A stretch of DNA of 64,000 bases, taken from sequence record MT446396.1; one strand, given 5' to 3'. Origin of the DNA: Escherichia virus TH22. Numbering within the stretch: position 1 is the first letter of the stretch; every line of letters begins with the position of its first letter. A model generated the notes under the pieces. It searched no databases. It saw nothing but the letters and a program-made list of their open reading frames with translations, and had not been told where the DNA came from. Shown here one piece after another: positions 27,502-36,031 of this stretch. A program made the position numbers and the translations under genes.

Positions 27502-27575
27502 GGCCCTGTAGCTGGACGGTCAAGCGAGCGACTCATAATCGCTGGATGGTGGTTCGATTCCACCCAGGGCCACCA
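27502..27575 (+). tRNA. tRNA with anticodon CAT (Met, or Ile if lysidine-modified)
   Basis: Cloverleaf folds by hand: acceptor GGCCCTG/CAGGGCC, D-loop with GG, anticodon stem AGCGA/TCGCT, loop CTCATAA, T-arm GGTGG-TTCGATT-CCACC, encoded CCA. Confidence 0.85.
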
Positions 27576-27709: not shown

Positions 27710-27785
27710 CGAGGCATAGCTCAGAAGGAAGAGCAAGGACCTTCTAAGTCCTAGGTCGTAGGTTCGATTCCTACTGTCTCGACCA
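27710..27785 (+). tRNA. tRNA-Arg (anticodon TCT)
   Basis: Acceptor CGAGGCA/TGTCTCG, D-arm GCTC...GAGC, anticodon stem AGGAC/GTCCT with loop CTTCTAA, T-arm GTAGG-TTCGATT-CCTAC, encoded CCA. Confidence 0.9.
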
Positions 27786-31269: not shown

Positions 31270-31824
31270 ATGACTTCATACGATAATCTTATATCAAATG
31301 TAGACTGGTTTGGTGGTAGTGGCCTTGCTACTGAAACTAATACAGTTCTTTATAGAATCCGTGGTGACTTGGGTTATTCCAATGATTTCTTAAGAAGAAC
31401 AACAAGTCGCGGCGATACTACCAAATTGCCTTTTATTTTTGCTTTAGCTGAAGACCTTTCTTTCGCAGATGCCTTGGAAATTATTGACGTAAATCTGGGT
31501 ATTCAACGAGTGGAATTCGCTGGACTACGTTATTCAGTATATGCTTTAAACGAGAGCAATGATTGCATACTTCTTAATATGGCAGATGATGATTACCATT
31601 TAGTATGTTATGTGGCGCTAGAAAATGGTGATGTATTTGGAATGGTTGACCGACGGCCAGCTTATACTGATATTAAAAATTATGATAAAGCTGAGCTTGC
31701 TATTTTGACTAATGAGTACACATTAGAATGTCATAAACAAAAACGAAAGCTTAATCGTTTTATTACTGAATGTCGTGAATATGCTAAAGGGGTTCAAAAT
31801 GCGAACGCTATATCTGCCAAGTAA
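31270..31824 (+). CDS. Hypothetical protein
   Basis: Start at MTSYDNL after GAGGAGAATATT RBS; 184 aa. Confidence 0.6.
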   Translation: MTSYDNLISNVDWFGGSGLATETNTVLYRIRGDLGYSNDFLRRTTSRGDTTKLPFIFALAEDLSFADALEIIDVNLGIQRVEFAGLRYSVYALNESNDCILLNMADDDYHLVCYVALENGDVFGMVDRRPAYTDIKNYDKAELAILTNEYTLECHKQKRKLNRFITECREYAKGVQNANAISAK

Positions 31825-32158
31825 ACCAGAAAAATTTGTATATGCAGACAAAATTGATAAAGACCTTATGCCTCCATTTGGGGCTCTGTCCATGTGCATC
31901 GTTGGGGTTATAATGATGGTGCTTTGTGGGGATATGGGTATCATTAGTGTTGGAGCCGCCTGGGCACTAATAATTGCAGCTCCTTTTATTACAGTCCTGG
32001 GTATGATTTTGATAAATGTGTGGCATCAAAATCATATGAATAAAGGATACCGTGGACGAGTTAAAGAGTGGGAACAAAAATGTGTTTCCCTACAAGAAGA
32101 GCACAAAATTAAATGTGCCGAAGAATTTATTAAGGAGGTTCGTAATGGAACGGCCTAG
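31799..32158 (+). CDS. Small membrane protein, FIKEC-tail family member 1
   Basis: Start at MRTLYL after AAGGGG RBS; one or two TM segments; C-terminus ...CAEEFIKEVRNGTA. Confidence 0.5.
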   Translation: MRTLYLPSKPEKFVYADKIDKDLMPPFGALSMCIVGVIMMVLCGDMGIISVGAAWALIIAAPFITVLGMILINVWHQNHMNKGYRGRVKEWEQKCVSLQEEHKIKCAEEFIKEVRNGTA

Positions 32159-32498
32159 TCTTGCATCACATGTTTATCAATTGGCTGAATATGATATTGG
32201 TGCCAATTTATTATTAGGAATTGTCACCGCTATGCTCGGGGGGCTGGTTGGCCTGGTAATGACCACAGTTATGGCTGCAATCGAGGGAGTCATGCCTATT
32301 GAGATGGGCTTCTTTATGATAATTGCTCCGGCTGTTGTGGCTTATTTTATCCCGGTTGTGTATGATATCTGTCACACAAATGCCTTGAATGCTCCTAGCC
32401 GCAAGAGATACGCTTCGGCAATGGCTGAGTATAATAAGTTCCTAGACAAAACAAAACGCAATGACCTTGAAACCTTTATTAAGGAATGTAAATCATGA
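32145..32498 (+). CDS. Small membrane protein, FIKEC-tail family member 2
   Basis: Start at MERPSLASH; hydrophobic core; C-terminus ...LETFIKECKS. Confidence 0.55.
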   Translation: MERPSLASHVYQLAEYDIGANLLLGIVTAMLGGLVGLVMTTVMAAIEGVMPIEMGFFMIIAPAVVAYFIPVVYDICHTNALNAPSRKRYASAMAEYNKFLDKTKRNDLETFIKECKS

Positions 32499-32785
32499 AT
32501 AAAATTGAAATTGCTATCCCCAAGTATTATGATGAGAAATCTGCAGAAAAAGCTATCTATTCTCTTCTAAATAAGACCTCTGAAATTGAAAAACACTGTG
32601 AAGAAATCGCAGATGAATATGGTATCGAATTCAGCACTGGTGATTACGGCACCGGCCGTACATATCACCCAGTCGGTTATGGATGCTCTGAATGGTTCGC
32701 TCACCATATTGAAAACAACGGCGGGCAAGTTGAAAACGGCATTGTTACTGTTGGTGCCTGGGTTTCCTCTTCTGAGGTGTGCTAA
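32495..32785 (+). CDS. Small protein, W-V-S-S-S-x-E-C C-terminal family member 1
   Basis: 96 aa ending ...GIVTVGAWVSSSEVC. Confidence 0.6.
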   Translation: MNKIEIAIPKYYDEKSAEKAIYSLLNKTSEIEKHCEEIADEYGIEFSTGDYGTGRTYHPVGYGCSEWFAHHIENNGGQVENGIVTVGAWVSSSEVC

Positions 32786-32786
32786 T

Positions 32787-33068
32787 ATGATGAATGATTA
32801 CCGTAAAAATAAAGAACTGGCTAACGCAGTAAATGACATCCATAAAGCTATTCGTCGTGCCGAGGAAATTGCAAACAAATATGAGACTCATTTTAATATA
32901 TACCCTGCTCGCGGTATGGGCGGTGACTATTATTCTCCTGGCGCCTTGAAAACTGACCTTGCTCATTGGGAAGAACATGGTGAAGCTCAATACGCTATTG
33001 TTAACCAACACGACTACACAACAAGCCTAGAGCATGGTGGTTGGGTGTCCTCTTCTTCTGAATGTTAA
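32787..33068 (+). CDS. Small protein, W-V-S-S-S-x-E-C family member 2
   Basis: Start at MMNDYRK (track ORF 32586 is a 5' over-extension into the previous gene); ends ...LEHGGWVSSSSEC. Confidence 0.6.
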   Translation: MMNDYRKNKELANAVNDIHKAIRRAEEIANKYETHFNIYPARGMGGDYYSPGALKTDLAHWEEHGEAQYAIVNQHDYTTSLEHGGWVSSSSEC

Positions 33069-33076
33069 GGAATTAT

Positions 33077-33274
33077 ATGTCTCGTGAATTAGATTGTGCA
33101 ATCCGTACTGCTGCGGCAGCTATTGAAAACGTTATCCAGATTTGCAAAGAAGAACGCGAAGAAGCTGATATCTACATTGATGGTGTTCGTGACTTAGAAC
33201 GACATATCACGCTTTATAACGGTTGTATTACTATTAGTGGTACCTCTTGGGTATCATCCTCTTACGAATGCTAA
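33077..33274 (+). CDS. Small protein, W-V-S-S-S-x-E-C family member 3
   Basis: Start at MSRELD; ends ...ISGTSWVSSSYEC. Confidence 0.55.
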   Translation: MSRELDCAIRTAAAAIENVIQICKEEREEADIYIDGVRDLERHITLYNGCITISGTSWVSSSYEC

Positions 33275-33284
33275 GGAAATAAAA

Positions 33285-33509
33285 ATGTCTGATATTAATG
33301 AATTAGAAAAAGCAGCACTTGAACTGGCTGCATTGTATAAGAAAGTAAAAGATATGGCTTCTGCTCAAGATTTTGGTGTCGAGCTCGATGATTATGACGG
33401 CGAAGTCCGACTTGAAGACTGGTTGAACAGCTCTTGTTATGGTGAAGAAGCTGGCCGTACCTTCGTTGCTCGTGCCGATGGTAAAATCTGGTACCCGAGC
33501 AGCTGCTAA
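33285..33509 (+). CDS. Small protein, degenerate family member 4
   Basis: Start at MSDINEL; ends ...DGKIWYPSSC. Confidence 0.5.
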   Translation: MSDINELEKAALELAALYKKVKDMASAQDFGVELDDYDGEVRLEDWLNSSCYGEEAGRTFVARADGKIWYPSSC

Positions 33510-33539: not shown

Positions 33540-33869
33540 ATGCACAGAGATTCAGTATTTAAATATCTTTTAAAAACAGATAAAGAATTTTATATGGATG
33601 GACAAGCATTCTTGTTCGTTCGCGGTAAGCGTGAAATGTTTTATAAATGCGACCTCTCCATGCATCATCACATGTACCATACCCATGGCGAGTCCATACT
33701 AGGGTTCTCTGGTGATGAGACTAAACATATAGCTATGTATTATGACCATTTCAAGCTTAATGATTGTGGTGATAATGCTTTGGTCTGGAATCCATCTTGG
33801 TGTCGGTGGGATACAATAGACAACAATAAATTATTTTTAGAATATTGCAGAAGTAGTATACAACTCTAG
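33540..33869 (+). CDS. Hypothetical His/Cys-rich protein
   Basis: Start at MHRDS after AGGAGG RBS; HHHMYHTH stretch and several Cys. Confidence 0.55.
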   Translation: MHRDSVFKYLLKTDKEFYMDGQAFLFVRGKREMFYKCDLSMHHHMYHTHGESILGFSGDETKHIAMYYDHFKLNDCGDNALVWNPSWCRWDTIDNNKLFLEYCRSSIQL

Positions 33870-33933
33870 AAAATCGTGTTACTATTCTCTTATCAACTGA
33901 TGACACTCACGTTATCAGAACAGGAGAATAAAA

Positions 33934-34134
33934 ATGTCTATCGCAAACGAATTAATCAAAGTTCTGAACGAAGCCAAAGCCAACCAACTGGAGGTTAATC
34001 TCCAGGAAGTTTCAGATGGCATTAAAGTAACCATCAGCGGCGATGGCGTTCCAGGCACTACAGAGGTTTACGATTCTTTGGAAGAAGTGGTTTCTTGCAT
34101 TAAAAGAGCCGTTTACTTATATGGTATAATTTGA
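33934..34134 (+). CDS. Hypothetical small protein
   Basis: 66 aa; preceded by degenerate promoter-like leader ending CAGGAGAATAAAAATG. Confidence 0.5.
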   Translation: MSIANELIKVLNEAKANQLEVNLQEVSDGIKVTISGDGVPGTTEVYDSLEEVVSCIKRAVYLYGII

Positions 34135-34144
34135 GGAAAATATT

Positions 34145-34312
34145 ATGTATAATGTTCTTATTGTTTTTGTCACTCATCCGCAAGGTGGAGTAAGACAGAA
34201 TACTTCTCAAGTGGTTCAATTTTCTTCACTAGAGGCCGCCAATCTTGCTGCCTCACGAATTGAAGCGAAAAAATCGGCACTTGGAAAATATGAAGTAACT
34301 CGTCTTTACTAA
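34145..34312 (+). CDS. Small ORF (55 aa), below ORF-track size cutoff
   Basis: ATG preceded by GAGGAAAATATT, the same initiation region reused at 34326 and 35345; translation MYNVLIVFVTHPQGG... Confidence 0.4.
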   Translation: MYNVLIVFVTHPQGGVRQNTSQVVQFSSLEAANLAASRIEAKKSALGKYEVTRLY

Positions 34313-34325
34313 TGAGGAAAATATT

Positions 34326-35285
34326 ATGATGTTAGTTATTGGCTCTCGCGCATTGCATAACGCCGGTCTGATTGAAAGTAAGAAAATTGAAAACTCTGAT
34401 TGGGACTTTATAGCAGACCAAGGTTCCTGGAACAACTTTAAAACCCAGATGATGGGGCAGCATGTTCCTGTGGATAACCCAGATGTGCAAGCTTTTAAGT
34501 GTATGCACAACGGTAAAGAAACCTATTTTGAAGCATACATCGTCCGAGCCCTGACAAGTGTTCGTGAGCTGACTGATGAGCTACAAGAGGAAGATTTTAC
34601 TTCCAGTTATCGTCTGCTCAAATATGCGAAGGCGAATATTCAGAAAGACCGTCTATCTGGTTTTTACTGGGCGACTCCTGATATTTGTCTGGCAATTAAA
34701 CTGTCTCATCGTTACCTGAAGAACAATCCATTCTTCCTGAAGACCATGAGTCATATTAATTACCTTCGTAATAAGGGTGTTGTTCTTAATGATGAACTGC
34801 AGAAAATCATGCTGCAACGCCAGGCAGAAACATTGTCATATAGCCACCCTAAACTAGACGTGGGCAAGAAAACTTTCTTTAATGATACAATCTATACCCT
34901 TGACCATGACTCCATCCACGAGGCCGTGGCACTTGCTGATAAGCCTGCATATAAGTTCTATATGAAGGATGATTCAGAAGTCATGACCTCACGTGAAAAA
35001 TTTGAAGCACTCCCTGATGTTATTAAACTGGCAGGGGTTTATGAAGAAGCATGTGTGCTTGCTCTGGAACGTTCACAGGTTCCTAATGAGTTCAATATCT
35101 CTCCATCCGTGAGCTTCCATATTGCTCTGGAAAAAGTCTGTACCTCCATTACTTCTGGATGGTTCCGTGAGTATGCCTGGGAACATTACCAGGATGTGGT
35201 TAATATGTACAACACCCTGGGACACGAAGACTATGTTAAACGTTTCAAAGCTAACCAACATTTAATTCGTCCTTTCGAAAAATAA
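34326..35285 (+). CDS. Hypothetical protein (319 aa)
   Basis: Long ORF with strong RBS; N-terminal GSRAL...SDWDFIAD is loosely reminiscent of a nucleotidyltransferase G-S...D-x-D motif but the spacing is atypical. Confidence 0.65.
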   Translation: MMLVIGSRALHNAGLIESKKIENSDWDFIADQGSWNNFKTQMMGQHVPVDNPDVQAFKCMHNGKETYFEAYIVRALTSVRELTDELQEEDFTSSYRLLKYAKANIQKDRLSGFYWATPDICLAIKLSHRYLKNNPFFLKTMSHINYLRNKGVVLNDELQKIMLQRQAETLSYSHPKLDVGKKTFFNDTIYTLDHDSIHEAVALADKPAYKFYMKDDSEVMTSREKFEALPDVIKLAGVYEEACVLALERSQVPNEFNISPSVSFHIALEKVCTSITSGWFREYAWEHYQDVVNMYNTLGHEDYVKRFKANQHLIRPFEK

Positions 35286-35344: not shown

Positions 35345-36031
35345 ATGAACGGTCCTAAAACTTTTAATAGTCAAGCTCGTGCAGTAGGTGGTTTTGCCGG
35401 CGGTATTTCTAATGATAAAATCAAGAACGAGCCTATGTTCTTCAACTGTAGTTTAGAATTTGCTTATAATAACGGCGGTCCTATTACTCGCAGCTTCATC
35501 ATGAACTTGCCAGATGATTGGAACACCGACCAGGTTGTATTTGATTCTCGGGTTCATATGCTGATGCCTGGTTGGTATCCTGCTATCCCAGGTTATCACC
35601 ATGACGATGTACCACGCCCGGATATTCCGGTTGGTCAACACTTTATTACTGCAGGGCAACCTGATTATGATAATCCTCGTTACCATTCTGAACATATTCT
35701 TGGTCTTGTTAACGCTGATGTGTGTCCTACTTATTTTGCAACCGGAACTGCACAATTTAGTCAGATTCCTGAAGGCGAACTTATCTATCGCCAGTGGCAT
35801 AAAGAAGTTCTGGAAAAAATTGAGTCCAATGAATTAACCAAGTGGGATGCTCCTGACCGCACGTTGCTCCAGTTTGATTGGCAGACATGGCATACAGGTT
35901 CTCGCGCAGTAAGTAACGGTTGGCGCTGGTTTGGTCGCGTGTCTCGTAATACCGACCGTGTTAAAAAGATTACAAATGAAATCCGCGTTAATGCTCAAGT
36001 ATATCTGGAATTCCCTATGGAGGGATGGTAA
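35345..36031 (+). CDS. Hypothetical protein (228 aa)
   Basis: ORF directly after cassette; no motif I can name. Confidence 0.65.
   Translation: MNGPKTFNSQARAVGGFAGGISNDKIKNEPMFFNCSLEFAYNNGGPITRSFIMNLPDDWNTDQVVFDSRVHMLMPGWYPAIPGYHHDDVPRPDIPVGQHFITAGQPDYDNPRYHSEHILGLVNADVCPTYFATGTAQFSQIPEGELIYRQWHKEVLEKIESNELTKWDAPDRTLLQFDWQTWHTGSRAVSNGWRWFGRVSRNTDRVKKITNEIRVNAQVYLEFPMEGW

Follow-up and report, generated by a model that had tools for sequence, protein, structure and literature searches.

We analysed a stretch of 64,000 nucleotides from Escherichia virus TH22 (sequence record MT446396.1; hereafter the window), which belongs to a T4-like myovirus of the Dhakavirus/Gaprivervirus group; its top match is Escherichia phage UPEC01 (96% identity), with 84 related records. 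Our subject is an array of four tandem small genes, here called g1 to g4, whose products share a serine-rich C-terminal tail ending in cysteine, together with a gene for a predicted nucleotidyltransferase (NTase) that starts 817 nt past g4 on the same strand. The array lies in a variable early region, with e.4-like membrane genes on one side and e.2, nudE and e on the other (SP18 annotation). The genes in question are as follows.

32495 to 32785, + strand: g1, 96 aa, 'GDYGxGRTYYP' subtype, C-terminus ...GAWVSSSEVC
32787 to 33068, + strand: g2, 93 aa, 'YGMGG' subtype, C-terminus ...GGWVSSSSEC
33077 to 33274, + strand: g3, 65 aa, reduced member without Gly-rich loop, C-terminus ...TSWVSSSYEC
33285 to 33509, + strand: g4, 74 aa, 'double-motif' member, C-terminus ...KIWYPSSC
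34326 to 35285, + strand: NTase partner, 319 aa, Pfam DUF7277 and DUF7275, PHROG 2141; predicted Pol-beta-superfamily nucleotidyltransferase with a large helical C-lobe

The four genes are separated by intergenic gaps of 1, 8 and 10 nt (g1/g2, g2/g3 and g3/g4), and each has its own AAGGA/GAGG Shine-Dalgarno sequence. A preliminary description of the locus had reported four tandem small genes with these lengths and endings, and both the listing of open reading frames (ORFs) and the sequence agree with it. It had also claimed that the tails are similar at the nucleotide level, which holds for g1 to g3 (all share TGGGTnTCnTCyTCT...TGyTAA) and fails for g4, where the serine codons are AGC. Within the g4 protein the motif also occurs internally, as DWLNSSC (residues 45-51; DWLNSSC-YGEE), in alignment with the g1-g3 tails; a further 23 aa follow and close with another copy, IWYPSSC. 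A chance origin of the tail motif is excluded, because g1-g4 are the only 4 of the 506 window ORFs of at least 35 aa to end in W.{1,2}SS.{0,3}C, because random tails of the same composition do so at a rate of 2e-5 per ORF, and because in related loci such endings are found in 310 of 4274 plus-strand ORFs versus 0 of 4312 on the minus strand. The g2/g3 and g3/g4 junctions (33066-33079 and 33272-33287) are also alike: in both, the stop codon is fused to the ribosome-binding site of the next gene (TGyTAAGGAAwTA...ATG). This repeat is consistent with tandem duplication of a unit containing the junction.

The proteins encoded by g1, g2 and g4 match PHROG 899 (E 1.7e-21 over residues 1-96, E 1.1e-19 over residues 2-93 and E 5.3e-10 over residues 1-73, respectively) and g3 matches PHROG 4882 (E 2.4e-36), making the window genes clear members of these clusters. 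Alignment with hhalign of the g3 subfamily against the YGMGG subgroup joins the two clusters (91% probability, E 9e-7, 63 columns). Distant members align on a shared plan: an N-terminal helix E-A-E-x-I-A-D-E-x-G, a Gly-rich loop Y-G-M/S-G-G-T-Y-Y-P (lacking in g3), a variable acidic and aromatic segment and a tail G-x-W-x-S-S-S-x-x-C. Judged by these comparisons, g1-g4 are homologs over their full length and form part of an uncharacterised phage family, rather than unrelated proteins with a common tag. The preliminary description had taken the N-termini to be largely divergent and the tail to be a portable tag on variable proteins, a view contradicted by the full-length PHROG 899 matches and the hhalign link to g3.

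Its emphasis on a Ser-rich tail ending in Cys as the hallmark of these proteins is borne out. The tail logo reads G-G-W-[VIFM]-S-S-S-x-x-C; among 34 distant members, invariance is limited to the columns W, S, S and terminal C, and Cys is the last residue in 126 of 129 unique members from the sampled loci, including all of g1-g4. Typical members are about 60-110 aa long (median 90 aa over the 129) and acidic (median isoelectric point, pI, 4.4), and contain 0-4 cysteines (median 2); in g2 the terminal Cys is the only one. In the AlphaFold2 (AF2) model of g1, a long helix packs on a small sheet whose final strand is A-W-V-S (predicted local distance difference test, pLDDT, 87 for one model and 43-57 for the other four), and the structure search found no PDB counterpart for the fold. 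Since the model puts W-V-S-S in the last beta-strand of the domain, it speaks against the tail being a free appendage.

We considered whether the tail might serve metal binding or oligomerisation, with the terminal Cys thiolate and carboxylate and the Ser hydroxyls building a metal site shared by subunits or paralogs and with no role in recognition by an enzyme. The terminal position of the Cys in nearly all members, its being the sole Cys of g2 and the presence of two motif copies in g4-type proteins all fit such a site. A single Cys per chain is a weak metal ligand set, however; two members in Ralstonia phage RSP15 have three residues past the Cys, and the link to the NTase is left unexplained. 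We therefore regard this explanation as very unlikely. The RSP15 locus (L129, 1958-2742) has three members upstream of its NTase gene, and the two with a non-terminal Cys end in ...GRWRSSTAICNGY and ...AKWNASAGMCGYL. Longer proteins of about 140-155 aa with the same tail (...AWCSSSMIC, ...DWDSSSMYC, ...QWHSSQC) stand in the same arrays at several loci (for example L074, 2223-3086; L086, 1270-1710; L125, 4551-5018). The tail may mark a wider superfamily with differing N-terminal bodies, because these longer proteins carry it and are missed by the profile hidden Markov model (HMM) of the small family.

The preliminary description did not recognise the family, and our searches likewise returned no relatives of known function. 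An exhaustive profile search of 1.84 billion representatives gave 47 clusters with E up to 1e-3, word-indexed searches returned solely 'hypothetical' proteins without a Pfam domain, and g1-g4 have no significant match in Pfam, NCBIfam or PADLOC. PHROG 899, 4882 and 2141 and Pfam DUF7277 and DUF7275 are labelled 'unknown function', and the tail motif, the gene pairing and a function are not recorded in these entries; literature searches found no publication on the small Cys-tailed family or on the DUF7277/DUF7275 NTase family. The module of enzyme and small proteins thus appears to be previously undescribed. The g2 ortholog is labelled 'tail completion protein' in UPEC01 and IME540 (GenBank MW233709, MT150133), and the NCBI protein record of Klebsiella phage vB_KpnM-VAC36 calls the NTase ortholog a 'prohead assembly scaffold protein'. 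Both names are probably annotation-pipeline artefacts, as we found no support for either.

Ratios of nonsynonymous to synonymous substitution rates (dN/dS) against orthologs are 0.07-0.18 for g1, 0.07-0.48 for g2, 0-0.31 for g3 and 0.02-0.08 for g4, comparable to the neighbouring NTase gene. The g1, g2 and g3 types recur in RB69/Mosigvirus and in Klebsiella and Enterobacter T4-likes, and the double-motif type of g4 recurs in Aeromonas phage phiAS4, Phapecoctavirus and Pseudomonas PspYZU05-like contigs. By this measure g1-g4 are old paralogs, each under purifying selection. A recent duplication or pseudogene remnant, the alternative raised in the preliminary description, is ruled out because dN/dS is low and each paralog has orthologs in other genera. 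A fifth subtype, ending FWFNSSMSC, is present in SP18 and absent from the window. In the RB69 reference (L002, NC_004928, 3179-3485) the g1 ortholog is split into ORF139c and ORF138c, with the tail AWVSSPALC. The RB69-like contigs L010 and L014 carry the whole gene (101 aa, ending AWVSSSALC), so we attribute the split either to a frameshift with decay of the gene in the reference strain or to faulty sequencing.

In the Erwinia jumbo phage Kaldavass (367 kb), two family members in tandem are followed by a gene whose product is 52% identical to the window NTase. To quantify this association we used two sets of loci, one seeded with the small family (27 viral contigs and 3 GenBank phages; seed alignment from the YGMGG subgroup) and one seeded with the NTase (80 viral contigs and 6 GenBank phages), in which small genes were called with the small-family HMM within a 4-kb radius. 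Loci were grouped by NTase identity into 31 lineages, and gene families were defined by all-against-all clustering. A same-strand DUF7275 gene lies downstream in 26 of the 30 small-family-seeded loci, with a gap of -37 to about 1280 nt, and in 3 of the 4 exceptions the contig stops too soon. Conversely, 74 of the 86 NTase-seeded loci have at least one small-family match, all on the same strand, and 28 of the 31 NTase lineages have members, with 1-7 small genes per locus. Copies of the small gene stand upstream of the NTase gene in 323 cases and downstream in 4. The NTase gene also lies downstream of each of three distant members that were drawn independently from the hits of the exhaustive search (3/3). 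Besides the NTase, the small family alone is common to more than five lineages; a third conserved component was sought, and the 228-aa gene at 35345-36031, e.6 and a Kaldavass coiled-coil gene are not common across lineages. The small family and the NTase are therefore a near-obligate gene pair, with the array upstream of the enzyme. The preliminary description missed two points: the homology that runs throughout the proteins, and this conserved NTase neighbour, which lies beyond the region it described.

This synteny bears directly on the possibility that the small proteins are independent effectors, that is, host-takeover or anti-defence factors (acidic mimics or ligand sponges, with the Gly-rich loop and Ser-Ser tail as an anion or nucleotide site) that are merely syntenic with the NTase or act in the same pathway. 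Gly-rich loops and Ser hydroxyls are typical phosphate binders, and both are present here; the proteins are small, acidic and aromatic-rich, and the 'hyperplastic' early-gene region that encodes them is missing from T4. At one locus a member stands without the NTase, and some NTase loci have no members, as such independence would allow. However, the synteny is kept over T4-likes, jumbo phages, Phapecoctavirus, Otagovirus, Menderavirus and Ackermannviridae while all other neighbours change, and persistent synteny usually means functional coupling. There is also no fold match to known sponges or mimics. We consider independent effectors unlikely.

The module is essentially confined to phages. 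Of 50,697 GenBank phage records, 731 contain the NTase, and tblastn with g2 detected the small family in 333 phage records or more, RB69 (ORF137c) and Kaldavass among them. NTase lineages with members cover several Straboviridae genera, jumbo phages of 300-390 kb, Phapecoctavirus, Otagovirus, Menderavirus (where the small members are downstream of the NTase) and one Ackermannviridae phage. The preliminary description had likened the tails to the capsid-targeting sequences of internal proteins; this likeness finds no support, and the family is also present in phages that are not T4-like. Among 185,579 species genomes the NTase was found in 5 contigs of metagenome-assembled genomes, all five with small members, and 72,556 plasmids gave 3 remote matches. 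No small partners can be recognised for the distant DUF7275 homologs of DSS3_VP1 and of phages that infect Gram-positive bacteria. Genes related to RNA stand near the NTase or its homologs in some phages: an RNA ligase gene directly downstream in RSP15, a phosphoesterase and RNA ligase 2 upstream of the partner-less DSS3_VP1 homolog, a cluster of tRNA genes in Gordonia Bachita and, in phage G, a gene for a tRNA nucleotidyltransferase.

The NTase, a clear member of PHROG 2141 and DUF7277/DUF7275, has the signature of Pol-beta nucleotidyltransferases: G6-S7, D25-x-D27 and E69 are invariant in 30 homologs and retained in distant homologs too, and about 55 more positions, mainly in the C-terminal lobe, are invariant among the 30. 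The enzyme is therefore apparently catalytically active. Its AF2 model (pLDDT 91.7) has as nearest structures the toxins MenT1, MenT3 and MenT4 and the ANT/Lnu enzymes (7-9% sequence identity to ANT(2'')/LnuA); the DUF7275 C-lobe has no PDB match of its own, and a sequence profile search of the PDB gave no match. Pfam matches at E up to 0.1 are DUF7275 and DUF7277 alone, with no AbiEii/DUF1814, PADLOC or NCBIfam match. NTases of the family are near-neutral to slightly acidic (median pI 6.0). A core of residues (K125, H128, K139, H194-D195, H198, E240-E241 and E248-R249) is kept even in partner-less distant homologs. R129, Y172 and H174, by comparison, are conserved in every partner-bearing lineage examined (R129 is Lys in Moby) and all replaced in four partner-less distant homologs (Bacillus G, Streptomyces Wakanda, Gordonia Bachita and DSS3_VP1). 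This pattern is weakly suggestive of a link between the NTase and its small partners, as it is confounded with phylogenetic distance.

The resemblance to MenT toxins raises the main rival to the reading we prefer, namely that the small proteins are antitoxin-like regulators, which would inhibit or time a MenT/AbiEii-like NTase (for example, a tRNA 3'-end modifier for host shut-off or tRNA repair) by blocking or reshaping its active site, as MenA1 does on MenT1. MenA1-MenT1 (Rv0078B/Rv0078A) and the MenAT/AbiE DUF1814 systems likewise have a short gene immediately upstream of the gene for a Pol-beta-type NTase, which in those systems is bi-lobed. MenA1 is a protein of 68 aa whose N-terminal helix acts on the MenT1 toxin (PMC10435456, PMC11375011, PMC7450476), more precisely on the enzyme active site (PMC11375011), and an N-terminal helix is likewise conserved in our small proteins, which are acidic. 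The RNA-related genes near the NTase in RSP15, DSS3_VP1, Gordonia Bachita and phage G would also suit an enzyme acting on tRNA. Like the MenAT/AbiE enzymes, the window NTase has Pol-beta motifs I and II (hG[GS]...Dh[DE]h) and a third carboxylate. Unlike them, it falls outside DUF1814/AbiEii by sequence, including the family-specific motifs III and IV (PMC7450476), it matches no PADLOC model, and its C-lobe is much larger. Nor does it have the overall basic character expected for a tRNA binder. The partner family is unrelated to MenA/AbiEi and has an invariant Cys-terminal tail, and arrays of up to 6-7 divergent paralogs conserved across genera are unexpected for a single antitoxin. Finally, the module resides in virulent phage genomes; of the usual homes of toxin-antitoxin systems, bacterial chromosomes lack it and plasmids hardly ever carry it. 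On balance we hold a regulator of this kind to be possible and rather unlikely.

We tentatively favour a reading in which the NTase would have the small acidic proteins as its clients, be it as substrates or as adaptors. The contact between enzyme and small protein, the tail as the site of contact or modification, and the biological role are what we infer here. The NTase would recognise the conserved scaffold, chiefly the invariant Ser-Ser...Cys-COOH tail, which would fit into the cleft that separates the NTase lobe from the highly conserved DUF7275 lobe; a tail hydroxyl would be nucleotidylylated or phosphorylated there. In a minimum version, the tail would tether the small protein to the NTase as an adaptor. 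The variable acidic, aromatic-rich middle could give each paralog a different host target, so that one enzyme with several clients would serve host takeover or counter-defence in large virulent phages.

Several observations agree with the client reading, among them the near-obligate linkage of the array to the NTase gene; the distribution of R129, Y172 and H174 counts as weak evidence for it. The fold class of the NTase transfers a nucleoside monophosphate (NMP) or phosphate to hydroxyls, including a protein side chain in MenT1, and this supports it; the active-site Thr of MenT1 is phosphorylated upon binding of its 68-aa partner (PMC11375011). The C-lobe positions are so strongly invariant that the acceptor is seemingly non-varying, which fits an invariant tail. 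Moreover, one enzyme with many clients fits better than one toxin with one antitoxin, because there are 1-7 paralogs per locus, because the subtypes are conserved across genera and because the tail and the helix are conserved while the middle varies. The earlier suggestion that the tail is a modification signal, one of several then offered, has become plausible, since a predicted NTase is nearly always encoded just downstream.

Related enzymes provide analogies. ANT(2'') and LnuA, of the same fold class, nucleotidylylate hydroxyls, although they are antibiotic resistance enzymes without a protein partner, whereas one is proposed for the window NTase. In MntA-HepT (type VII toxin-antitoxin), GlnD-PII and GlnE-glutamine synthetase, an NTase moves NMP onto a hydroxyl of a small partner protein encoded nearby. 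These last systems are parallels only, as their enzymes modify Tyr of unrelated proteins, no homology to the window proteins was detected, and modification in our case is a proposal.

Other observations weigh against the client reading. The AF2 model of g1, itself uncertain, places W-V-S-S in a beta-sheet; simple O-nucleotidylylation of Ser leaves the invariant terminal Cys unexplained; and the pI of the NTases shows no obvious charge match to acidic partners. Tight synteny in phage early regions can also persist without physical interaction. One locus (L061) and a group of four (L082/L084/L090/L109) have no small genes within 4 kb, though their NTases keep all conserved residues. On a 305-kb viral contig of a jumbo phage (L026, 5956-6761), a member ending ...GGWSASSQSC is followed by an overlapping AAA_33 P-loop kinase-like ORF and no DUF7275 gene; it is the sole member-bearing locus with adequate downstream sequence yet without that gene. 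The AAA_33 kinase there may be an alternative partner enzyme or a chance placement.

A bolder form of the client reading would be a new phage protein-modification system, in which the MenT/ANT-like NTase covalently modifies the Ser-Ser...Cys-COOH tail of a small effector set by O-nucleotidylylation, by protein-primed nucleotide addition, or by activation, elimination and ring closure with the terminal Cys, giving a panel of modified proteins with differing host targets. We think this quite unlikely. The ring-closing chemistry also underlies a separate explanation, in which the small proteins are precursors akin to ribosomally synthesised and post-translationally modified peptides (RiPPs): a Gly-Gly site would precede an 8-residue core W-V-S-S-S-x-x-C, the NTase would activate Ser, elimination would yield dehydroalanine, and the terminal Cys would capture it in a lanthionine/AviCys-like ring. 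The tail logo accommodates this arrangement. A Ser at -3 or -4 from the C-terminal Cys is the spacing of the thioether rings in epidermin and cypemycin, and the tails have a similar one. In addition, several precursor-like genes precede one enzyme gene, as in prochlorosin loci, where arrays of short paralogous ProcA genes with a common recognition element are served by a single ProcM. Unlike prochlorosin loci, however, the window has none of the RiPP enzyme classes: no LanB/LanM/LanC/LanD-type enzyme, peptidase or exporter is conserved nearby, and the Pfam domains of the neighbours show none. Conservation is highest in the putative 'core', and the 'leader' varies more, the reverse of typical RiPPs, and the proteins look folded, with the tail predicted within the domain. 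Ser dehydration via nucleotidylylation is also without known precedent, and we judge the RiPP-like explanation extremely unlikely.

The surroundings of the array differ between lineages. The array and the NTase gene are direct neighbours in most other lineages; in the window three further genes stand between them.

33540 to 34312, + strand: three lineage-specific small genes (109, 66 and 55 aa; PHROGs 9796, 14244 and 20278)

These are not members of the small family and, among the sampled loci, are present in the closest relatives only. Immediately upstream of g1, at 31775-32498, lie two overlapping genes for predicted membrane proteins (127 and 148 aa) that are mutually related and e.4/e.3-like (PHROG 2604 and 2330); the second gene's stop codon and the start codon of g1 overlap (ATGA). 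The 228-aa protein encoded 60 nt 3' of the NTase gene belongs to PHROG 1843 without a Pfam match; its conservation is limited to T4-like relatives, and the Kaldavass locus contains no match to it. Promoter and terminator scans around the array gave nothing exceeding background. Rfam identified just two tRNA genes (27502-27572 and 27710-27782), located on the same strand some 5 kb upstream of the array; the equivalent position in SP18 holds three. A search of T4 from 62 to 76 kb found neither the small Cys-tailed family nor the NTase partner gene, and e.3 abuts e.2 there.

The module is widespread, ranging from jumbo phages and Phapecoctavirus to T4-likes of Aeromonas and Klebsiella and the model phage RB69; its absence from T4 is probably why it has escaped study. 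Should the tail serve the enzyme as a substrate or for docking, two DUF families and two PHROGs would gain a role, and phages would have in this module a novel means of producing or directing a set of effectors through a single enzyme.

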